DNA of 30,750 bases from a virus: UHGV virus genome UHGV-1468954; one strand, 5' to 3'. Every line of letters starts with the position of its first letter. Within the stretch, counting starts at the first letter, position 1. The position numbers and the translations under genes are program-made. Below are positions 9,785 through 28,755 of this stretch, piece after piece. The notes under the pieces are model-generated. The model searched no databases, was not told the DNA's origin, and saw only the letters and a list, made by a program, of their open reading frames with translations.

Positions 9785-11056
9785 TTACGGATTACCGAAG
9801 AACTGACCGCCCATGTGAGGGTTAAAGCACACATATGCAGGCAGTAAGTCGAAGCGCATTTTTTGCACGTTGGCATCGCCATCTGCGTATTTATGTACGC
9901 GGATGGAGAAACCTTCATATGTTGCAACAGCAGAATCAATACTGTGCAGTTTCGGCAGTGGGATAGAGCCAAGTCCACAGAAGAACTTGTTATAGAACAG
10001 GTTTGGCTTCATTGTCTGGCTAGCAGTGCCTACTACAGATACGGCATCGCCTGCCTCTACCTGACGACTTACAGAGTTGTACTGCGGGTTTGTAGTGTCA
10101 TAAATCGGAACACCAGAAAGCGTAACCGTCACATCGCCACTGCTGTCTGAATTAGCATCAGCAGTAACCGTTGCAGTGAAGCTAATTGGTGTGGCTCCGT
10201 TATACAACGCCTGTTTGGTCTGCTGTTGCAGCCAGTAGGTATTGGTGAATTTAACCTGATCACCAGCTTTCAGAAAACCTGTAACGCTGGCTGTCGCTCC
10301 GGTCAATGTTACAGTGAACTGGTATGAGTCTTTAACTGCGTTATAGGTAACAGTTGGCTGTGTTTTGACTGTCAGTGTTCCGCCAAATGCCCCCTGCGTA
10401 CGAGAGGCAAGCCCATTAGACATCAGTGCGCGAATGCCGCCAAAATTGGTTGGGATCTGTGCGTTCTCCCATGCAGTACGAACCAATTGATCTGAAGCAT
10501 GCAAACCAGTCTGCGCATCAGCAAGTCGCTGTGCAGACCATGGATCCATTACAGCATAGTTTTCACCTTCATTAACGCCGAGGTCTTTCAGGAAAGATGC
10601 CGTCTGCGCAACATCAGACCATTTGGTGATTGGAGTATTGGGGCTACCAAGTGACAACGCACCGTTATTCATCATGAAGTGAGCAAGCTCTGTTTCAAGG
10701 TCGGTAACGATTCGCTGGCGAACCGGCGCGAGAATTTCTTCCAGTTGGTTAAGCTTGATCGCTTCCTCCAGTTGCTGATATTCAACAGCAACAGTGATGT
10801 AGTTACCTACACGCCCCGTAGCTTTACCTGAGATCAGGTTGTTTTTATTTTGCCCTGAGATATCACCAGTGGGAGTACGGAGGGATGAGAATTGATGCGG
10901 ACGTTTAAAGCTAACGCTATCGCCAGTGCTGGAGTTGATTTCACCTGCCAGCAACTGACGGTCTACGGTTTTCGCCAGAACTAAATCTGACATAAAACCC
11001 GGAAGGAATTTTTTCAGAACGATTTGACTGACGTTACTGTCGAGATTGTTAGGCAT
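9785..11056 (-). CDS. Major capsid (coat) protein, P22 gp5 family
   Basis: 423 aa; follows the scaffold and precedes gp4 as in P22-like phages; size close to P22 coat. Confidence 0.8.
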   Translation of the reverse strand: MPNNLDSNVSQIVLKKFLPGFMSDLVLAKTVDRQLLAGEINSSTGDSVSFKRPHQFSSLRTPTGDISGQNKNNLISGKATGRVGNYITVAVEYQQLEEAIKLNQLEEILAPVRQRIVTDLETELAHFMMNNGALSLGSPNTPITKWSDVAQTASFLKDLGVNEGENYAVMDPWSAQRLADAQTGLHASDQLVRTAWENAQIPTNFGGIRALMSNGLASRTQGAFGGTLTVKTQPTVTYNAVKDSYQFTVTLTGATASVTGFLKAGDQVKFTNTYWLQQQTKQALYNGATPISFTATVTADANSDSSGDVTVTLSGVPIYDTTNPQYNSVSRQVEAGDAVSVVGTASQTMKPNLFYNKFFCGLGSIPLPKLHSIDSAVATYEGFSIRVHKYADGDANVQKMRFDLLPAYVCFNPHMGGQFFGNP

Positions 11057-11067
11057 TTATCTTTTCC

Positions 11068-11952
11068 TTATTCGATTTTTGCGCCGGGGCATAATTTGTT
11101 GAATTCGTCTTGTTTCGCATCAGCACCGCCACCACGTACTTCCGGCTCTGGCTTGATGGCTTTCTTTGGTTTTGGAGCAAGGCTTACCTGTTTGCTAATC
11201 TGCCCCAAGAGGAATGCTGCGCGAATTGGATCTGTCTCAGCGGCTACACGCTGGCGTAATTGCTGGCTCTTACCTAAGCCATAGGCGAGTAGTTCAGAGC
11301 CTTCGTCTGCACAGTGAATGATGATTTCCTGCTGAATTGGTGGTAGCTCACTAAGAACAATGGCTTCCATTTCCTGATAATCTTTCACAGGAAGTTTGGC
11401 TGCCCGTTGTTTATGCGCTTCTACCCTTTGCTGGAAACGCTGCTGGTATTCCTGTTGCTGACGTAGTTTTTGTTGCTGCTGCTGTTCGACACGGCCTTTT
11501 TTCTCATGCCAATCAGTCAATGCCTGTTCAAACGCCTGTTCGTCATAATCACACGACTCAAGAGTCGGTTTTGGTGGAATAGCGTCTGGTTGTGGTTGCT
11601 GATGTTCCGCAGGCTTGGCTAATGCTTCCTCAAGCTGGCGGCGCAACTCACGGTTTTCTTTCTGTGTTTCTTTGAATCCTTTGCGAAGATCTTTCACCCA
11701 TTGCGGTGCAGGTTGCCCGTCAATGTGATCATCATCGTCAGCGTTAAGCTGAATTTCTTCATCACCAATACGCAAGGCGTAATCTTCTGGTGTCTCTTCG
11801 GTTTTTTCAGGATCAGTTGCCATCTCTTTTCCGTTGTCATCCTGGCTTTCATTCTCAGGCTGTGACTCTGTTTGGATGATGGTTTCTTCTGCATTTTCCT
11901 GTGTTTCAGACAGGTCAATAACCTGACCGTCGATGATCAGTTCGTTTTCCAT
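11068..11952 (-). CDS. Scaffolding protein, P22 gp8-like
   Basis: 294 aa; acidic, Gln/Glu-rich, with a basic C-terminal tail; between portal and coat. Confidence 0.75.
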   Translation of the reverse strand: MENELIIDGQVIDLSETQENAEETIIQTESQPENESQDDNGKEMATDPEKTEETPEDYALRIGDEEIQLNADDDDHIDGQPAPQWVKDLRKGFKETQKENRELRRQLEEALAKPAEHQQPQPDAIPPKPTLESCDYDEQAFEQALTDWHEKKGRVEQQQQQKLRQQQEYQQRFQQRVEAHKQRAAKLPVKDYQEMEAIVLSELPPIQQEIIIHCADEGSELLAYGLGKSQQLRQRVAAETDPIRAAFLLGQISKQVSLAPKPKKAIKPEPEVRGGGADAKQDEFNKLCPGAKIE

Positions 11953-11965
11953 TGATTACTCCTGG

Positions 11966-14092
11966 TTAACTCGGCATTAAGTCTGCCGGTGACTGTGGTG
12001 GTGACTGGAATTGCTGTTGTTGTGACTCGGCGACATCTTTCAGAAGGCGTATTGCCTCCATCACTGCTTTGTCATCGATGTTTCTGGCTTGAGCCAGTTT
12101 ATAGACAGTGTTTGCCTGACTCTCCATCGCATCCTGCTGGGCAGTAAATGCTTTGATTTGAGTTTGAGCAGTTTCGTTAGTTGCTTTTTGCGCTTCTGCC
12201 TGCGCTGCTACCATTTGCGCCTGAGCGAGAACCATTTCAGGATTTGGCTGGCTTTGTGCTGCCATTTGCGCCTGTTGAACAATCTGCTGCTCTTTCTCAT
12301 TGCGTGGTTTTGCAATACCAGATATCAGCAGTTGGTTTCGGTTGTACTCTTTGAAGTCATCAAGGCCTTCGCCATCGATATTGTCCAGAATAATACCCTG
12401 AATTGCCTGGCGCATTGGGTCTGTTGGAAGCATAGAGCTAAGGACATTTGTCAGTACAGAAACCGTTGCATCACGTCGTGCTGTGTAGCTTGGTCCAACA
12501 TCAACCGTCACATCGTATCGACCGACAGAAAGGTCATTTAACGCAACAACAGCCCCTGTTTGCCTGTCAACAACCTGTGCGCTCAGGACAGCGATATCAT
12601 CACTTCCATCTTCGTTAACGATGCGCACTTCACGTTCTGAACCGTACACTTCACGCGCCATTGACAGCCATACTTCACCAGCGCGTTTAAGACTTTTCGC
12701 CATATTGTCCAGATAGATAAACGAAGCCATATCTGCTCTGTTCATCAAGTTGTTAACCGTTTCCTGAGCAATATTACTTGGCATCTGCTGCATGGCCTGA
12801 CTGCCGCCTGTAACCTCCTGAATATCTGCACTGGTTTGCTGTAGTAATGCAGCCAATGCCTGATTCATAACCGCAGGCTGTGTATATCCTGCCGGGGTAG
12901 CTCCAGCGATAATGTTGCCAGATTTATCTCTCACTTCGCGCAACGGCAAGAACGCTGGGCGTTTCTTGTTGCGAGCCTCCCAGTGCTTCTCAAGTCCACG
13001 AATTTGCTCCATGCCAACTATAGGGATCTGACCGGGGTCTTGCGCTGCAGTATCAGCCAGCATTGAAACCTGAAGGTTGTACAAACGCTGTGGATCCATT
13101 GCTTTTGCAATGTGCCCTTCGACACGCTCAATGTCATCAATGAACCAGCGTTTTCCATAAACCGGGATGAGGGGGATATGCTCACCAGGAATACGTCGAG
13201 GTTTCTCAAGGAAACCATCACCATCCACTACGGATACATACACACGACGGCGCTTCACTGAGCGCCTTGCCACTTCCTGAAATCCAGCTATTGCCAGTTC
13301 ATCTTCAATATCTTCAACCTGATCACTGTCGTATGTTGCAATCTCTCCAGTGATTGGATGTCGATAACTGATGACGTCAACAGACTCTTTACGAACTTCG
13401 TAATACTTCGCTATGTAAATAACATCTGCACCAAACCAGTTATATTCCCAACTGGTCATAGACGTTACATCCAGAGAAGTAGGAGGTTTCTTTCCGTATT
13501 CAGCCTCATATTTTTCAGGTGACAACGAATACATACAGAACGCCCACAACGCGTCAGATTTGTCGTACTTCTTAGCGTCAGGGTCAAACCACACAGAGCG
13601 CGACGGGTCGTATATTGGTTCAATAGCAATACGCTGACGATCGTCCATGGGGTCGTATTCATTGACCAGCATCGACGTCAAACGGAAGCAACCGAAACCA
13701 CCAGTAGCAGCGTCGTCAAATGCATTATCGCAAGCCTCACCGCCATCAGTTTCTTCGTAGTCAGCACGGAACAGACCATTTAATTTATTGGCTAACTCTT
13801 CGCTTGCCTCTCTGTCACCAGGACGAAACTTAACGGTGATTCTGTTATTGCGGTATTCTGCAATGATGCGGTTAAGTTCAGTTGCTACCTTATTGATTTC
13901 AAACTTAGGATACTTCTCGAACTGCTCATCAAGCTTAGTTCCAGCCGCCGTTGCTCCTTCCCATTGACCTCCTGGGACACGAGCAAACCTCGTAGCTTCA
14001 ATGCACTTTTCGCGCACTTCCTTCTGTGGAGAATAGGCGCGGTCAAACCTGAGCATGATCCGCTCATGTTTTTTCTCTAATGTCTCTGCCAT
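11966..14092 (-). CDS. Portal protein, P22 gp1 family
   Basis: Track ORF 11966..14164; likely start is ATG 14092 (MAETLEKKHERI...), 2 nt after the TerL stop. Segment ...KKYDKSDALWAFCMYSLSPEKYEAEYGKKPPTSLD... aligns with P22 portal (memory). Confidence 0.8.
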   Translation of the reverse strand: MAETLEKKHERIMLRFDRAYSPQKEVREKCIEATRFARVPGGQWEGATAAGTKLDEQFEKYPKFEINKVATELNRIIAEYRNNRITVKFRPGDREASEELANKLNGLFRADYEETDGGEACDNAFDDAATGGFGCFRLTSMLVNEYDPMDDRQRIAIEPIYDPSRSVWFDPDAKKYDKSDALWAFCMYSLSPEKYEAEYGKKPPTSLDVTSMTSWEYNWFGADVIYIAKYYEVRKESVDVISYRHPITGEIATYDSDQVEDIEDELAIAGFQEVARRSVKRRRVYVSVVDGDGFLEKPRRIPGEHIPLIPVYGKRWFIDDIERVEGHIAKAMDPQRLYNLQVSMLADTAAQDPGQIPIVGMEQIRGLEKHWEARNKKRPAFLPLREVRDKSGNIIAGATPAGYTQPAVMNQALAALLQQTSADIQEVTGGSQAMQQMPSNIAQETVNNLMNRADMASFIYLDNMAKSLKRAGEVWLSMAREVYGSEREVRIVNEDGSDDIAVLSAQVVDRQTGAVVALNDLSVGRYDVTVDVGPSYTARRDATVSVLTNVLSSMLPTDPMRQAIQGIILDNIDGEGLDDFKEYNRNQLLISGIAKPRNEKEQQIVQQAQMAAQSQPNPEMVLAQAQMVAAQAEAQKATNETAQTQIKAFTAQQDAMESQANTVYKLAQARNIDDKAVMEAIRLLKDVAESQQQQFQSPPQSPADLMPS

Positions 14093-14094
14093 GT

Positions 14095-15507
14095 TTACCA
14101 ACCGGAGGATGAGGGAACGTATATTTCTGTTTCTTCGCGGACCAATGCCGGGCAATGCATACACATCATCAGCGCATCAGCCAGGTTAGGAGATGGAATA
14201 CCGAGCTTCTGCTTCATTTCGACCTTAGTCATAAGCTCCAGCTTCCCGTTATTATTGAATTTGCGCTGAATCTGCGTCAGTTCTGCAAACAGCTTCTCCA
14301 GCATCTTCTCGCCTATCGCTTCTTTGTCGAAACTCAGCATGTCGTCGGGGTCTGCATACTCACCGTGAACAACCGCCCGATATGTCAGATACAGCCTGTC
14401 AGCCAGCGCGTAATAGAATTGTGCTCGCTTATTGCGGAACACATCGCCAATAGTGCGAACGTTGTCACCCTGTACGACTTCATCAGCCCATGCTCCGGCT
14501 TGATACGGTGCATCTTCATCGAATGGCGATTCGCTGCCCTTGAACATCGTGGCGGTGATTTTCTTGCCGGAAAACGCTTCCGTTGTCTGTCTGCGTAGCC
14601 CGGCACCAACACCATCACCATCCCACAGGTAATGGTCAGCGCCGTCTTCAATCGCCAGCGAAGTAGCCCAGTCAGCACCCTCGTTGATGTCCATCAGCAG
14701 ACCTTCGGCAATGCGCTTAACTACCGAACCGTGACGCGATGCATAACCTTTAGCATCTGGCCCTGTATCTGATGGGTCATGCGCAGAGACAACAGCGCCT
14801 TTCGCTTTCCATCCGAGTTTCTTGTGCGCATCGGTTGCGGCTTCAAGCCATTCACGTTTGATAATTGCCATATCACTTGCGCTCACTGGCTCACCAAGCC
14901 AGATGTGACGATACAGTGTCGGATTTCTGCGTTTACACTCTTCCATCTCCAGACGGAGAACTTCAGGAAAGTGCGGGTTGTCGGTGTAGTTCACCGTCAA
15001 CAGGCAAATATCATCAGGAGGATTTACGACGAATCGCTGATAGGTATCGTCGAGTATGTTCTTCGGGTTAAAGCTCACCCATATTTCAGAGAACGGCTTA
15101 CGGATGGTTGGTATCAGGATATCCCATGATTCCTTCGTTACCGCTTCCGCTTCTTCCACCCAGCAGATATCAATACCTTCGAGCGATTTAATCTTCGTCG
15201 GGTTGTTTTTGATGCCGTAGAACATGAATTCAGCATTCGTTCCGAGATGACGAATCATGGAACGCTGAATTTCAAACTCAGCCGTATACCCTTCACGCTC
15301 TATGGTGTCTTCAAGCAGCCGGATTACCGAATCGCTGATACTGTTTTGCAGTTCACGAGCGCAGAGAATACGCACTGGCTGCCGACGCGCCGCTTCAACA
15401 AGCAGTCTCGCAATTGCCCATGATTTACCGCTACCTCGACCGCCTTTGGCGACTTTGTAGCGATGCGCCTCAATGAACGGTTCAAAGATAGGATTAATCG
15501 AGGTCAT
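14095..15507 (-). CDS. Terminase large subunit
   Basis: 470 aa; Walker A VAKGGRGSGKS; followed directly by the portal gene. Confidence 0.85.
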   Translation of the reverse strand: MTSINPIFEPFIEAHRYKVAKGGRGSGKSWAIARLLVEAARRQPVRILCARELQNSISDSVIRLLEDTIEREGYTAEFEIQRSMIRHLGTNAEFMFYGIKNNPTKIKSLEGIDICWVEEAEAVTKESWDILIPTIRKPFSEIWVSFNPKNILDDTYQRFVVNPPDDICLLTVNYTDNPHFPEVLRLEMEECKRRNPTLYRHIWLGEPVSASDMAIIKREWLEAATDAHKKLGWKAKGAVVSAHDPSDTGPDAKGYASRHGSVVKRIAEGLLMDINEGADWATSLAIEDGADHYLWDGDGVGAGLRRQTTEAFSGKKITATMFKGSESPFDEDAPYQAGAWADEVVQGDNVRTIGDVFRNKRAQFYYALADRLYLTYRAVVHGEYADPDDMLSFDKEAIGEKMLEKLFAELTQIQRKFNNNGKLELMTKVEMKQKLGIPSPNLADALMMCMHCPALVREETEIYVPSSSGW

Positions 15508-15944
15508 TTTCCGAATAGAGTACTCATCGGTGATGTTTCAATCTGGATTGCGCCGCCGTCTTTGCCTGTTAGCTCGTGATCAACCTTGTCGCGCCATTTA
15601 TCCTTCTGTCGGTTCTTAAGCCAGAAGATGGCAGCTGTTGTATCAGGCGGGTAATACTTCTCAAGAGGAGTTTCGACAATTCTGTTTTCAATAACACGAA
15701 TATCGATGTCTGGAGCCACGAAGCCCATAGCGCGTTGATAAAGACGGTCACTAACTTCTGCATCAGCGACGGCCTTACCCTTTTTTATGGACTCCGAAAA
15801 CTCAGGATAATCAAGCTTCCACTTGTTAATAGTTGACTCACTGACTTCGAAGAAATCAGCAAGCTCTGCATCGGTGTAGCCCAGCAAGCACAGTTTGCGT
15901 GCCTGTTCGGCATACGCCTCTTGATACTTTGTTGGGCGCGCCAT
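15504..15944 (-). CDS. Terminase small subunit
   Basis: 146 aa; HTH-like N-terminus; immediately upstream of TerL with a 4-nt overlap. Confidence 0.7.
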   Translation of the reverse strand: MARPTKYQEAYAEQARKLCLLGYTDAELADFFEVSESTINKWKLDYPEFSESIKKGKAVADAEVSDRLYQRAMGFVAPDIDIRVIENRIVETPLEKYYPPDTTAAIFWLKNRQKDKWRDKVDHELTGKDGGAIQIETSPMSTLFGK

Positions 15945-18955: not shown

Positions 18956-19579
18956 CTAACGTGTGACCGCATTCAAAATGTTGTCTGCGATTGACTCTTC
19001 TTTGTGGCATTGCACCACCAGAGCGTCATACAGCGGCTTAACAGTGCGTGACCAGGTGGGTTGAGTAAGATTTGGGATTAGCATCGTTACAGCGCGATAT
19101 GCGGCGCTTGCTGGCATCCTTGAATAGCCGACGCCTTTGCATCTTCCGCATTCTTTCTCAACAACTCTCCCCCACAGTTCTGTTTTGGCTATATCAACCG
19201 CACGGCCTGTACCGTGGCAATCTCTGCATCTTGCGCCCGGCGTCGCGGCACTACGGCAATAATCCGCATAAGCGAATGTTGCGAGCACTTGCAGTACCTT
19301 TGCCTTAGTATTTCCTTCGAGCTTTGCCACACCACGGTATTTCCCCGATACCTTGTGTGCAAATTGCATCAGATAGTTGATAGCCTTTTGTTTGTCGTTC
19401 TGGCTGAGTTCATGCTTACCGCAGAATGCAGCCATTCCGAATCCGGCTTGTGATTGCGCCATCCCCATAGCAGCCATCACATCAGTACCGGAAAGAGAGT
19501 CAGAAGCCGTAGCCCGTGGTGAGTCGCTCATCATCGGGCTTTTTGGCGAATGAAATTTAGCTACGCTTTCGAGTCTCAT
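18956..19579 (-). CDS. Q: Late antiterminator Q
   Basis: 207 aa; MRLESVAKFHSPKSPMMSDSPRATASDSLSGTDVMAAMGMAQSQAGFG... matches lambda Q (memory). Confidence 0.9.
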   Translation of the reverse strand: MRLESVAKFHSPKSPMMSDSPRATASDSLSGTDVMAAMGMAQSQAGFGMAAFCGKHELSQNDKQKAINYLMQFAHKVSGKYRGVAKLEGNTKAKVLQVLATFAYADYCRSAATPGARCRDCHGTGRAVDIAKTELWGRVVEKECGRCKGVGYSRMPASAAYRAVTMLIPNLTQPTWSRTVKPLYDALVVQCHKEESIADNILNAVTR

Positions 19580-23461: not shown

Positions 23462-24159
23462 ACACTTGCTCCTTTCAGTCCTAACTTAGCTTTAATTTCT
23501 GCGATCTTCGCCAGCGCCTGAACACGATTTAGAGGTCTGCCGCCCATGACAGGAAGTTGTTTTACTGGTTCAGGTATCGTCTCACCACGGTTAATTCGCG
23601 CTGTCATACAGGTCAGTTCATCGGCAGCCTTGCGTCGTAATTCCGCGTCAGTCAGCGCATTGGCCCGCATGTTCTGGTACAGGTTGGTAACCAGCCAGTA
23701 GTGCGCGTTCGATTTCCACGGATAAGACTCTGCATCCGGATACAGGCCTCGCTTCCGGCAATACTCGTAAACCATATCAACCAGCTCGCTGACGTTTGGC
23801 AGTCCGGCGATAACGGATGCTTCTTCCCGGCACCATGCAACAAACTGCCCGGGTGATGGCAGAAATGGTCGATTCTGCCGACGGGCTACGCGCATTCCTG
23901 CGTTAACCTGTTCCATTGTGGTGATCCCGTTTTCCCGGAAAGCCAGAACCCACTGGCGGCGGATTTCATTCAGTTCGTTCTGGTCACGGTTAGCCAGACT
24001 CGCCGGGAAAGTTGCCAGTAACTGGCTGAACACACCGTTGATGATCTGCGCTACCTGCTGTACCTGCGGCTTTTCGTCGTACTGTTCCGGCATGTTGTTG
24101 GCGATCCGACGCATCTGCTCACGGTCAAAATTAACCATCTGTGCGGCGATGTTTTTCAT
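23458..24159 (-). CDS. P: Replication protein P (DnaB helicase loader)
   Basis: 233 aa; MKNIAAQMVNFDREQMRRIANNMPEQYDEKPQVQQVAQIINGVFSQLLATFPASLANRDQNELNEIRRQW... matches lambda P. Confidence 0.9.
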   Translation of the reverse strand: MKNIAAQMVNFDREQMRRIANNMPEQYDEKPQVQQVAQIINGVFSQLLATFPASLANRDQNELNEIRRQWVLAFRENGITTMEQVNAGMRVARRQNRPFLPSPGQFVAWCREEASVIAGLPNVSELVDMVYEYCRKRGLYPDAESYPWKSNAHYWLVTNLYQNMRANALTDAELRRKAADELTCMTARINRGETIPEPVKQLPVMGGRPLNRVQALAKIAEIKAKLGLKGASV

Positions 24160-25055
24160 AAATCCACCCCGTAAATCCAGTCAGTGTTTGTCAGGTCGAG
24201 TTTTGGTTTGCTAGCTGTCACGCCTGCCTGTTGCTTGTTACGGTTGATTTCGAGTTGAGTCCACTTGTCGCGGAGTTTGGCCGGACTCAGCACGTTACCG
24301 GACCAGAAGTTGTCCTGGCATGCCCAGCGGAACAGCACGCACATGTCGCGGTGGTTACGTCCGTCACGTTCACGCATCAGGCGGATATCGTTAGCCCACC
24401 CTGCAAAATTTGGTTTTCTGGCTGATGGCGCGATGGTCTTCACCATGTCAAACATCCACTCTGCGGCGGTCAGGTCTTCTGCTGTCCCCCACTTGCTGCC
24501 GCTCTGAATTGCAGCATCCGGTTTCACCACAGAAAGGTCGTTTTCTGGCTGGTCAGAGGATTCGCCAGAATTCTCTGACGAATAATCTTTTCTTTTTTCT
24601 TTTGTAATAGTGTCTTTTGTGTCCCCCTGTTTTGAGGGATAGCAATCCCCCAATTTGAGGGATGTTTTATCCCTCGTTTTAGGGGATTTTCCCTCGTTTT
24701 GAGGGATACACCATTCTGAGATGTTTTTATTTGGTCCAAACATGCCGCCTTGCTGCTTGATAATATTCATTCTGACGAGTTCTAACTTGGCTTCATTGCA
24801 CCGTTTGACGGGTAACTTTGTAATCTCGCTAAGTTGAGAATCGGTGATTCTGTCCATTGGTTTATTCCATCCATAGGTTTTACGCAGAATGGCAAGCAGC
24901 ACTTTAAACTGTCGCTTGGTCAGATCTGCGCCTGAATAAGCCTCAAGCAGCATATTTGATAGTCTGGCGTAACCATCATCGAGATCTGCCACATTACGCT
25001 CCTGTTTGGCAAAGTTACCTCTGTAGAAGTTGAGTATTTTTGCTGTATTTGTCAT
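24156..25055 (-). CDS. O: Replication initiator O
   Basis: 299 aa; MTNTAKILNFYRGNFAKQ...; contains the ori iterons in its mid-region as in lambda. Confidence 0.9.
   Translation of the reverse strand: MTNTAKILNFYRGNFAKQERNVADLDDGYARLSNMLLEAYSGADLTKRQFKVLLAILRKTYGWNKPMDRITDSQLSEITKLPVKRCNEAKLELVRMNIIKQQGGMFGPNKNISEWCIPQNEGKSPKTRDKTSLKLGDCYPSKQGDTKDTITKEKRKDYSSENSGESSDQPENDLSVVKPDAAIQSGSKWGTAEDLTAAEWMFDMVKTIAPSARKPNFAGWANDIRLMRERDGRNHRDMCVLFRWACQDNFWSGNVLSPAKLRDKWTQLEINRNKQQAGVTASKPKLDLTNTDWIYGVDL
24585..24706. other. Lambda-type replication origin: four 17-18 bp iterons plus adjacent AT-rich region, inside O
   Basis: Iterons TCCCCCTGTTTTGAGGGA, TCCCCCAATTTGAGGGA, TCCCTCGTTTTAGGGGA, TCCCTCGTTTTGAGGGA at about 24622-24706; the AT-rich tract at about 24585-24620 is on the P-proximal side. 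Confidence 0.85.
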
Positions 25056-25064
25056 AATGACTCC

Positions 25065-25141
25065 TGTGGATTGATCCAGTAATGACCTCAGAATTCCATC
25101 TGGATTTGTTCAGAACGCTCGGTTGCCGCCGGGCGTTTTTT
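25065..25141 (+). ncRNA. oop: OOP-type antisense RNA (about 77 nt) covering the cII 3' end
   Basis: pO: TTGAGT (25030-35), 17-nt spacer, CATAAT (25053-58). Terminator stem CGCTCGG / CCGGGCG (one G-U pair) with a T6 run at 25116-25141. The predicted length equals lambda OOP. Confidence 0.6.
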
Positions 25142-25381
25142 ATTGGTGAGAATCGAAGCAACTTGTCGTGCCAATCGAGCCATGTCGTCGTCAACGACAC
25201 CCCATTCAAGAACAGCCAGAAGCATTCCCATTTTTGGGATGAAGCTGTCTTTCCATCGTGAAATTTGCGATTCATTAATCCCTAACGCGTCGGCAACCTT
25301 TCGCTGACCACGTACAGCAATTCGATTCAGGATGTTGCTTGTAATTGCATTCGCTTTCTTGCGAGTACTTGTAAGTTCCAT
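25088..25381 (-). CDS. cII: CII transcriptional activator; chimeric (divergent N-terminal/HTH region, lambda-like C-terminal part)
   Basis: Track ORF 25088..25468; start ATG 25381 gives 97 aa. C-terminal ...SQISRWK...LLAVLEWGVVDDDMARLARQVA.ILTNKKRPAATERSEQIQMEF matches lambda CII; residues 1-45 differ. Confidence 0.8.
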   Translation of the reverse strand: MELTSTRKKANAITSNILNRIAVRGQRKVADALGINESQISRWKDSFIPKMGMLLAVLEWGVVDDDMARLARQVASILTNKKRPAATERSEQIQMEF

Positions 25382-25439
25382 ATGTAAGTATTTCCTTAAC
25401 AAATAAGAAGTTATGCGCATCAACTTATGCGCGTTGTAT

Positions 25440-25482
25440 TCCCGCATTTCGGCGGGAATGAGGACCATGACTGTTAAAGAGC
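25440..25482 (-). promoter_or_regulatory. nutR (boxA plus boxB) between cro and cII
   Basis: Minus strand boxA GCTCTTTAACA (25472-82) and boxB hairpin UCCCGC-CGAAAU-GCGGGA (25440-57); the boxB is identical to that at nutL. Confidence 0.6.
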
Positions 25483-25490
25483 GGTGTTAC

Positions 25491-25691
25491 TTATGCAGTT
25501 GTTTTTTTGTTGCTTGGGAAGGGCTTTATTTCTTCCGCATAAACGCTTCCATCAGCGTTTATAGTTAAAAAAATATTTCGGCCTGCATGAATGGCCTTGT
25601 TGATCGCGCTTTGATATACGCCGAGATCTTTAGCCGTCTTGGTTTGACCAAAGCGCATTGCATAATCTTTCAGGGTTATGCGTTGTTCCAT
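25491..25691 (-). CDS. cro: Cro repressor
   Basis: 66 aa; [64 protein letters not shown] matches lambda Cro apart from about 2 residues. Confidence 0.9.
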
Positions 25692-25717
25692 ACAACCTCC
25701 TTAGTACATGCAATCAT

Positions 25718-25785
25718 TATCACCGCTAGAGGTAAAATAGTCAACACGCACGGTGTTAGATATTTATCCCTTGCGGTGATAGATT
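25718..25785. promoter_or_regulatory. Right operator oR1-oR2-oR3 with divergent pR (minus) and pRM (plus)
   Basis: oR1 25718-34 TATCACCGCTAGAGGTA; oR2 25742-58 CAACACGCACGGTGTTA; oR3 25765-81 TATCCCTTGCGGTGATA. pR is TTGACT-17-GATAAT on the minus strand; pRM is TAGATA-17-TAGATT with a leaderless cI start. Confidence 0.85.
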
Positions 25786-25788
25786 TAA

Positions 25789-26505
<717 letters not shown>

Positions 26506-26571: not shown

Positions 26572-26952
26572 ATGAATGATCTTGATAAGAAAAAGTACGA
26601 CCAAGTTATTGATTCTGTGAACTTCGCCCTTAGATCGTTGTCAGAGTTATTCGAAGCCCATGGAATGCATGGGATGTATGATCTAACGAATCCAAGCCTT
26701 GATGAGCTAAAATTAGTGTTTACAAGGATGAAAAACGGAGTTGACTCTATTGCTCAAAGCTTTGAGCATATGGTAGAGACAGCAAAGGATATGGATGCCG
26801 CAAGTGCAAGCATAAATGTTATGAACATCAAGCAAGGATTGATGTATGCTGAATCACTATTGCTTGCTGTAGAGAAATTAGACTATGATAAATGTGTGGA
26901 AGCAAATACGCAGATAAAAACCCACGATCTTCCACCAACCCAATGGCCTTAA
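26572..26952 (+). CDS. Hypothetical protein (126 aa) at the rexA/rexB position downstream of cI
   Basis: Same strand as cI, 66 bp downstream after an AT-rich spacer; visibly AT-rich coding sequence; predicted soluble and helical; no family recognised. Confidence 0.6.
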   Translation: MNDLDKKKYDQVIDSVNFALRSLSELFEAHGMHGMYDLTNPSLDELKLVFTRMKNGVDSIAQSFEHMVETAKDMDAASASINVMNIKQGLMYAESLLLAVEKLDYDKCVEANTQIKTHDLPPTQWP

Positions 26953-27425: not shown

Positions 27426-27466
27426 GCTCTTTAACATTGATGGGATTGTCCCGCCGAAATGCGGGA
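27426..27466 (+). promoter_or_regulatory. nutL (boxA plus boxB) in the pL leader
   Basis: boxA GCTCTTTAACA (27426-36); boxB hairpin TCCCGC-CGAAAT-GCGGGA (27449-66). Confidence 0.6.
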
Positions 27467-27573
27467 ACCAAAGAGTAGTTGGCTTTGGGGTGACGTGAAG
27501 TGCAGCTGCACGACGGCAACCGGAAGATAAGCACCCGGCGCGTCACCGCCAAAGTCAATCATCGGAGGTCAAC

Positions 27574-27879
27574 ATGACAGTCGTCATTACATATCTGGCT
27601 GACGATAACACCAGAAATCGCCGCAGAGCACGCAGACAGGCTCAACGTGAGCAGGCAATGCAAGAACAGCGACTGGCGCGAAAAATTGCGCTAAAGCTCT
27701 CTGGTTGCGTCAGAGCAGATAAAGCAGCATCACTCGGAAGCCTTCGCTGCAAGAAGGCAGAAGAAGTCGAGCGTAAACAGAATCGTATTTACTACCGCAA
27801 GCCACGCAGTGAAATGGGTGTGACCTGTTCAGGCCGCCAGAAGCAACGCGGAAAATCAATTCCAGCTTATTACGATTGA
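27574..27879 (+). CDS. N: N-family transcription antiterminator (not lambda-type N-terminus)
   Basis: 101 aa; GGAGG RBS; arginine-rich motif NTRNRRRARRQAQREQ near the N-terminus; C-terminal ...VTCSGRQKQRGKSIP resembles the lambda N C-terminus (memory); first gene downstream of pL/nutL. Confidence 0.7.
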   Translation: MTVVITYLADDNTRNRRRARRQAQREQAMQEQRLARKIALKLSGCVRADKAASLGSLRCKKAEEVERKQNRIYYRKPRSEMGVTCSGRQKQRGKSIPAYYD

Positions 27880-28553: not shown

Positions 28554-28614
28554 ATGCATACCAATAACGCTTCACTCGAGGCGTTTTTCGTTATGTATAA
28601 ATAAGGAGCACACC

Positions 28615-28755
28615 ATGCAATATGCCATTGCAGGGTGTCCTGTTGCTGGCTGCCCTTCCGAATCTTTACTTGAACGAATCACACGTAAATTACGTGATGG
28701 ATGGAAACGCCTTATCGACATACTTAATCAGCCAGGAGTTCCCAAGAATGGATAA
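28615..28755 (+). CDS. cIII: CIII-like protein (46 aa, C-terminally shorter than lambda CIII)
   Basis: Internal start of track ORF 28510..28755 with an AAGGAG RBS; MQYAIAGCPVAGCPSESLLERITRKLRDGWKRLIDILNQPGVPKNG matches lambda CIII residues 1-46 (memory). Confidence 0.75.
   Translation: MQYAIAGCPVAGCPSESLLERITRKLRDGWKRLIDILNQPGVPKNG

Follow-up and report, generated by a model that had tools for sequence, protein, structure and literature searches.

Gene Content of the Immunity Region

The window, i.e., the whole 30,750-nucleotide stretch of viral DNA analyzed here (UHGV-1468954), contains a lambda-like immunity region that is inverted relative to the lambda map, with cro, the nutR/tR1 region, cII, the oop/pO region, O and P following one another on the minus strand. 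The cII gene (25088-25381, minus strand) starts at the ATG at 25381 and encodes a chimeric CII/C1 transcription activator of 97 aa; the 126-aa version reported by the ORF finder begins at an upstream in-frame ATG. The protein is matched by the Pfam family Phage_CII (PF05269) over positions 1-91 of 91 (E=1.8e-46; 156.7 bits against a cutoff of 21.3), by PHROG 191 (CII-like activator) and by the lambda CII structure PDB 1xwr (E=9e-39), and is, judging by the full-length profile match, a member of the Phage CII/C1 activator family.

The neighbors of cII are largely of lambda type. These are cro (25491-25691, minus strand; Pfam Cro, 93-100% identity to lambda), the repressor gene cI (25792-26505, plus strand; Pfam HTH_3 and Peptidase_S24), which pRE is expected to serve and whose compared part (25771-25800) is 97% identical to lambda, and the O gene (24156-25055, minus strand), followed by P. 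Repeats in the O gene (TTTTGAGGGAT / CCCTCGTTTTAGGGGA, window 24600-24720) resemble lambda-type ori iterons. A promoter and terminator scan, together with identity to lambda, places a lambda-type oop antisense RNA on the plus strand, with promoter pO at 25030-25058 and a terminator at 25112-25139; its extent we take, on the model of lambda oop, to be 25066-25144. The nutR boxB (25439-25456, minus strand) is of a non-lambda type; its 18-mer (CCCGCCGAAATGCGGGAA) is identical at nutL (27450-27467, plus strand), and boxA (CGCTCTTTAAC) lies upstream of it. As both boxB copies are non-lambda and the N-like gene (27574-27879, plus strand) is no lambda N but a member of phrog_271, the cI-cro-operator cassette of lambda sits among N/nut elements that are foreign to it.

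The virion module (2558-15944, minus strand) is P22-like, with portal (PF16510) and coat (PF11651) genes and gene sizes matching gp3, gp2, gp1, gp8, gp5, gp4, gp10, gp26, gp14, gp7, gp20, and gp16, while replication (O, P), Q and immunity resemble those of lambda. The Rfam family Lambda_thermo (cIII thermoregulator) was found at 28602-28660 (plus strand; 84 bits, E=5e-20), a lambda-type cIII leader in a P22-like genome. Directly after cI, where lambda has rexA/rexB, there is a 126-aa ORF (26572-26952, plus strand) with a full-length match to PHROG 16322 (unknown function) and no Pfam or PADLOC match; from its position it could be an accessory or exclusion gene expressed from the prophage.

Mosaic Structure of cII

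Three-way DNA alignments, sliding identity and protein alignment all show that cII is a hybrid, as the earlier note on this DNA had proposed. Codons 1-61 are of the type found in P22 C1, HK620, Sf6, and HK542, and codons 62-97 are of lambda type. At the protein level, residues 1-62 match the C1-type sequences of HK542/HK620 everywhere but at residue 2 (E, as in P22), and residues 53-97 are identical to lambda CII save for A76S. The window tracks HK542 up to the GGT of codon 61 and then follows lambda from GTC GTT GAC onward, which places the recombination joint (codons 61/62) at 25196-25199, between cII nt 183 and 186, within the conserved MLLAVLEWGV block (LLAVLEWG core) common to all types. 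The C-terminal two-thirds of the gene had been described as lambda-like; the chimerism itself stands, the proportions do not, the N-terminal ~63% being non-lambda by descent and the lambda share amounting to the C-terminal third (~37%).

The foreign segment extends beyond the coding region. A patch of ~310 bp (25199-25505), comprising nutR with its boxB, the tR1 region, the cII leader, pRE, and cII codons 1-61, is 97-100% identical to HK620/HK542 as against 60-90% to lambda, and within it the interval 25200-25495 has full-length matches of 98% identity in phages ECP1, N7, and mEpX2. From 25800 down to ~25505 (cI start, OR, cro) the sequence is of lambda type, and leftwards from 25196 (cII codons 62-97, oop, O) it is lambda again; the 3' third of cII (25088-25195, minus strand), which encodes the predicted C-terminal helix and FtsH degradation tail and is overlapped by oop, has 93-100% identity to lambda. 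The left edge of the HK620-type patch falls at the end of cro. The change of the pRE -35 region along with the cII 5' end, also pointed out previously, was thus borne out, both lying on the same patch.

The N-terminal part is of a common type and nothing unusual. A tblastn search recovered the C1-type N-terminus in P22 (82% identity over residues 1-82), HK620, Sf6, HK542/544/244, mEpX2, N7, and many other phages, and 583 relatives were confirmed in IMG/VR, so that hundreds of sequences of this type are present in collections of phages and viral contigs. Tabulation of N-types against C-types over all fetched loci revealed several natural combinations, including a second form with a C1-type N-terminus and a lambda-like C-terminus, and a clade combining a lambda/Yersinia-like N-domain with a P22-like C-terminus; recombination at this joint is therefore recurrent and ordinary. 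The cII gene of the window is an ordinary natural recombinant, an instance of the routine mosaicism of lambdoid phages already found in public sequences. The window itself has no full-length match among complete E. coli genomes, where the best hit to a 441-nt query was 95.8% over 91% of its length, or among phage records, where HK620 came closest overall with only 57% coverage.

Lambda-type cII was also encountered in assemblies of unrelated organisms (genome_contigs loci L092-L107, L112, L114, L127, and L149), among them Shewanella, Pseudomonas, Kitasatospora, Bradyrhizobium, Ruminococcus, and Oceanobacillus. Over residues 7-97 these matches share 74% identity with the window protein, the same value as for lambda itself, and several lie on contigs of ~48.4 kb; judging from these features, they are almost certainly lambda DNA contamination.

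The pRE Promoter and Its CII-Binding Box

The pRE CII-binding box TTGC-N6-TTGT (TTGCGAGTACTTGT; 25359-25372, plus strand) occupies cII nt 10-23 and flanks the -35 region. Direct reading and pattern search give TTGC-GAGTAC-TTGT at this position. Both candidate boxes of the earlier note, this one and another at 25335-25348, are present on the plus strand by the same two methods. The -10 hexamer AAGTAT (25386-25391, plus strand), identical to that of lambda, follows the box after a gap of 13 nt, the same spacing as in lambda pRE, and the -10, the leader and the Shine-Dalgarno region of cII/pRE are all identical to lambda in the alignment.

The box at 25359-25372 had been correctly identified as standing at the lambda-equivalent position. 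Alignment of CII/pRE regions shows it in the same register in lambda (TTGCGTTTGTTTGC), P22 (TTGCGAGTGCTTGT at cII nt 10-23), HK542, HK620, and Sf6. The GenBank record of HK542 marks the CII binding site at cII nt 10-23 along with a -35 and, at the same offset as here, a -10, that of HK620 has pRE and a cII protein_bind feature at the position equal to 25359-25372, and the Sf6 annotation puts the CII/C1 site at cII nt 10-23. The N-terminal region of this cII is, then, a common variant whose site had already been annotated at cII nt 10-23. The C1 site at P22 pRE has been quoted as TTTCN6TTGT (PMC12111858); this string appears to be a typographical error, since the P22 sequence (AF217253) reads TTGCGAGTGCTTGT there.

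The position of the box is kept across CII clades from Yersinia, Pantoea, Citrobacter, and others. Of 86 unique CII 5' ends, drawn from viral contigs and from genomes spanning many genera, 71 have TTGC-N6-TTG(C/T) exactly at nt 10-23; for CII 5' ends that are colinear the count is 141 of 143. Two CII homologs (L130, L135) have GTGC...GTG(T/C) at nt 10-23 in place of the TTGC repeats, which are also lacking there in loci L110, L113, L116, L118, L121, L123, L133, L139, L141, and L142, and no TTG(C/T)N6TTG(C/T) was found in the CII 5' ends of the ..ARKIESW.. clade, which has a two-residue insertion; from their sequences, the CII target of homologs without these repeats at nt 10-23 may be displaced or changed.

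Conservation of the box was assessed at synonymous sites in 166 unique sequences of the first 62 cII codons, including a C1-type superclade A (n=130) and a clade B (n=16), by counting parsimony changes per third codon position on neighbor-joining trees. Among E. coli phages the region hardly varies, so that 80 viral contigs of close relatives alone gave no information, and divergent genera were added. Codon 4 has the form xCA and codon 7 is CGC in every case, and the third position of codon 4 as well as codon 7 showed zero synonymous changes in the 130 and 16 unique sequences of the two groups, which indicates that the bases of the pRE box are conserved beyond coding need.

A sigma-70 scan of 25000-25800 returned only pR and pO and no consensus promoter at pRE, as is expected of an activator-dependent promoter. 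By its sequence layout the element qualifies as a pRE-type promoter: a direct repeat straddling the -35 region, 13 bp to a weak -10, location at the cII 5' end, and orientation toward cro and cI. A transcript start near 25398, placed from the -10 position only, would send the transcript through cro in antisense and on to cI. The earlier doubt as to which of the two boxes is used can be regarded as settled for promoter function: register, annotations and -10 spacing together indicate that the box at 25359-25372 is the one used for activation at pRE.

The Hybrid CII Protein and Its Targets

The DNA-recognition region had been said to differ from that of lambda; the recognition helix SQISRWK (residues 38-44) is, on the contrary, invariant in the six proteins compared, namely those of the window, Dewey, HK542, HK620, P22, and lambda. 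A single-sequence AlphaFold model of the cII protein (low confidence, pLDDT 60, too poor for anything beyond rough helix limits) has helices at 3-33, 37-43, 48-59, and 65-80, with 81-97 disordered, and by these limits the DNA-binding part lies on one side of the joint and the last helix with the tail on the other. This division agrees with the crystal structures of lambda CII. Because the joint sits in the conserved LLAVLEWG core, the hybrid protein can be described as a C1-type DNA-binding domain joined to the lambda C-terminal helix and FtsH tail. The direct repeat is recognized by two subunits of the CII tetramer (PMC9986795); the FtsH tag consists of the last 16 aa, and the overlap between oop and cII measures 52 nt (PMC5869508).

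The hybrid CII is predicted to recognize the pRE box, since its DNA-binding domain and the box share the inherited ~310-bp patch and the recognition helix is invariant. A second target is retained in the genome. paQ (TTGCGAGCACTTGC, 13 nt, TAGTAT; 19279-19311, plus strand) was found by pattern search and comparison with lambda, antisense within the lambda-type Q gene (18956-19579, minus strand; Pfam Antiterm). Its box and the ~40 nt flanking it to the left and right match lambda, one mismatch lying 27 nt downstream; here a C1-type DNA-binding domain serves this lambda-type CII target. No tandem box was found 24 bp upstream of 19279, and the window motif matches at 12300 and 5171 were rejected as CII promoters, having no -10 and looking like chance occurrences. 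The retention of a lambda-identical paQ box fits the TTGCN6TTGC/T specificity common to P22 C1 and lambda CII, whose targets are the same or very similar according to the passage of PMC2629481 that cites Ho et al. (1992). The question raised earlier, whether the hybrid CII still recognizes its promoter, therefore probably has a positive answer, given the shared patch, the invariant helix and the retained paQ; we see no recognition mismatch between hybrid CII and pRE box, which form a co-inherited pair and should bind.

Taken together, the locus is very probably a lambdoid lysogeny-establishment module in a P22-like (HK620-like) genome with lambda immunity, in which the cII mosaic co-inherits the DNA-binding domain and the pRE box. 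Hybrid CII would bind the box at 25359-25372 as a tetramer and activate the weak pRE (-10 AAGTAT, predicted start near 25398), whose transcript would run antisense through cro into cI; it would also act on the lambda-identical paQ. The 5' patch may keep matched parts together, the DNA-binding domain with pRE and nutR with the phage's N, and the lambda-type 3' third of cII would stay matched to the oop antisense RNA and to FtsH/cIII control. The chimera may thus illustrate how joints fall where co-adapted parts stay together, i.e., the DNA-binding domain, pRE and nutR on one side and the oop overlap, FtsH tag, oop, and O on the other. The chimera matters little for the question as it had been posed; the useful by-product is a lead on a conserved, unannotated second CII-type box.

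A Conserved Second Box Upstream of pRE

The second box (TTGCTTGTAATTGC; 25335-25348, plus strand; cII nt 34-47) is a perfect TTGC-N6-TTGC repeat found by direct reading and pattern search, and is a candidate auxiliary CII site. It reads TTGC-TTGTAA-TTGC, is centered at about -56 of pRE, and starts 24 bp from the start of the pRE box. Compared with the lambda pI CII site (TTGCGTGTAATTGC) it is identical at 13 of 14 positions, the two being one spacer base apart. Over the whole window both motifs occur at chance frequency (TTGCN6TTGC, 3 against 2.9 expected; TTGCN6TTGT, 2 against 2.0 expected), and the meaning of such a box therefore comes from its position and conservation only. The curated annotations of HK542, HK620, and Sf6 have a single CII site at pRE and no second one, and the literature searched contained no description of a second CII site at pRE. 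No conserved -10 was found downstream of the upstream box among the relatives compared.

A perfect box is present in clade A (E. coli C1-type, Kalamiella, Erwinia) and also, at nt 34-47, in the separate clade B (Cedecea/Dryocola type, ARAIESK, 16 sequences), where its spacer and flanks are different; in the N-domain tree clade B falls into the lambda/Yersinia half. Amino-acid changes have broken the box in the P22 type (CTGC...TTGC), the Rahnella type and L091 (TTGC...TTTC), and the lambda-type and Yersinia-type genes have no such box at nt 34-47. The upstream box is thus not present in all members with the same type of DNA-binding domain.

In superclade A, with a mean of 6.25 changes per degenerate third position over 57 sites, only four of the 57 had no change at all, at codons 4, 7, 12, and 15, and these are exactly the codons carrying the synonymous base of the four TTG(C/T) repeats. 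Codons 12 (GCA) and 15 (AGC) belong to the upstream box. With the pRE box taken as known, the probability that codons 12 and 15 are the two remaining zero sites is 1/1485 (0.0007) in superclade A, and P = 0.006 when the test is confined to codons 2-22; in clade B the same test gives P = 0.018 for all codons and 0.12 for codons 2-22 only. The first ~16 codons show generally lower synonymous variation, which weakens the test for the upstream box. Codons 12 and 15 vary in lambda-type genes, which are without the upstream box. The distribution of changes suggests that the upstream CII motif is maintained by selection at synonymous sites. The conservation of this box, which the earlier note did not claim, is, on the sequence evidence, more than coincidence.

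Interpretation of the Upstream Box

The chances appear about even that the upstream box is a second, selectively maintained CII-binding site centered near -56. The broader reading, that pRE has two CII operators 24 bp apart in the HK620/Sf6-type module and, independently, in the Cedecea/Dryocola-type clade, is put forward tentatively, as not quite reaching an even chance on the sequence comparison. Among the observations that count against a second site, P22 has a C1-dependent pRE without an intact upstream box, and the box centers are 24 bp apart, a non-integral number of helical turns.

The main alternative is that the box is a coding by-product of the Ala-Ile-Thr-Ser-Asn sequence with no function at the DNA level, pRE being a single-site promoter as in lambda and P22; this is quite possible, though it too stays clearly short of even. 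It would account for the chance frequency of TTGCN6TTGC in the window, for the loss of one repeat through amino-acid changes in P22, Rahnella-type and L091 genes, and for the single site of the reference annotations, and synonymous change is generally reduced at gene 5' ends. What it does not predict is zero change exactly at the two degenerate positions within the repeats, all neighboring third positions being variable, or the occurrence of the box in two clades that are separate and differ in its spacer and flanks; the 13/14 identity to a genuine CII site, lambda pI, and the variability of codons 12/15 in lambda-type genes also speak against it. Conservation of these codons could instead come from constraint acting on the mRNA where cII translation starts (structure, RNase or factor binding), as the sites lie inside the first 16 codons, where translation constraints are common. 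We consider this improbable: RNAalifold of 16 diverse sequences gave -1.66 kcal/mol with four invariant pairs and no covariation, the possible partner UUGC at codons 21-22 is freely variable, and it is precisely the GCAA repeats of the CII motif that are conserved. Structure in the mRNA was accordingly rejected as the cause of the synonymous conservation. An overlapping ORF on the other strand was also rejected, none of at least 40 aa crossing the box, as was compensation for the imperfect TTGT, since L246, L164, L169, and L170 combine a perfect TTGC..TTGC proximal box with the upstream box.

It is scarcely conceivable that the upstream box, and not TTGC-N6-TTGT, fires pRE or a second leftward promoter within cII. 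Its repeat is perfect, against the TTGT of the proximal box, but the sequence 13 nt downstream (CGAGTA/GAGTAC) is unusable as a -10, this would-be -10 lies in the freely variable spacer of the proximal box (GGGTAC, GTGTGC, GTGTTG, GGGTGG), and 37 nt would separate the box from AAGTAT; the proximal box, in turn, stands in the lambda register, is conserved in all clades, and has TTGT in P22, HK620, and Sf6 as well. A second promoter served by the upstream box was rejected on these grounds. The remaining alternative concerns the protein, namely that the joint upsets folding or tetramerization and leaves a mismatched or inactive hybrid CII with no lysogeny via pRE. Chimeras with a C1-type N-terminus and a lambda C-terminus are indeed rare (6 of ~290 C1-type N-termini in the sample), and the structure model is of low confidence (pLDDT 60). 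Still, the joint lies inside a block identical in both parents, the cII frame is intact with a full-length Pfam match, the same protein occurs in an isolated phage (Dewey) and another contig, a second, independent form of C1-type N-terminus and lambda-like C-terminus is known (L007 type), and natural reassortment of N and C types is seen in clade B; an inactive hybrid therefore seems very unlikely.

If the upstream box is indeed a second CII-binding site, two CII tetramers could occupy the cII 5' end, with a sharper dose-response of repressor establishment to CII or a block to rightward transcription into cII-O-P. Cooperative activation, a roadblock, or autoregulation of rightward transcription are possible effects of the box. 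Such a two-operator pRE would depart in design from the single-site paradigm of lambda and P22 and, as HK620/Sf6/HK542-type phages of E. coli and Shigella are very common, could alter the cooperativity of the lysis-lysogeny switch in them.

Comparison with Known Systems

The locus shares with lambda CII/pRE the gene order, the convergent layout and the box register at nt 10-23, as well as identical -10, leader, Shine-Dalgarno region, recognition helix and paQ, and the oop overlap. The C-terminal 35 residues of the protein are identical to lambda CII save for A76S, whereas identity is only about 45% over window protein residues 1-52; the proximal repeat is TTGT where lambda has TTGC, and lambda has no box at nt 34-47. 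Lambda pI, so similar to the upstream box, differs in having its own -10 and driving int; no conserved -10 follows the window box, and another CII box stands 24 bp downstream of it.

The P22 C1/HK620/Sf6/HK542/HK544/HK244 group has the same TTGC-N6-TTGT box, in the same annotated place in HK542, HK620, and Sf6, and the nutR of HK620/mEpX2 is of the type carried on the HK620-type patch of the window. The proteins of the P22-C1 group differ in being 92 aa long with a VEDEELAELAKKVA... C-terminus, as against the 97 aa and the lambda C-terminus here, and in P22 the upstream repeat of the second box reads CTGC.

The closest relatives are phage Dewey (PQ850600) and the IMG/VR contig IMGVR_UViG_2698536618_000022, which carry the same chimera of C1-type N-terminus and lambda C-terminus with 98% and 100% amino-acid identity, respectively. 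The Dewey CII CDS (1441-1794) is annotated from an upstream in-frame ATG as a protein of 117 aa; homology and the position of the Shine-Dalgarno sequence indicate that its true start is probably that of the 97-aa form. Dewey differs from the window in its repressor, cro, and nutR context, and has an HNH endonuclease gene after its cII.
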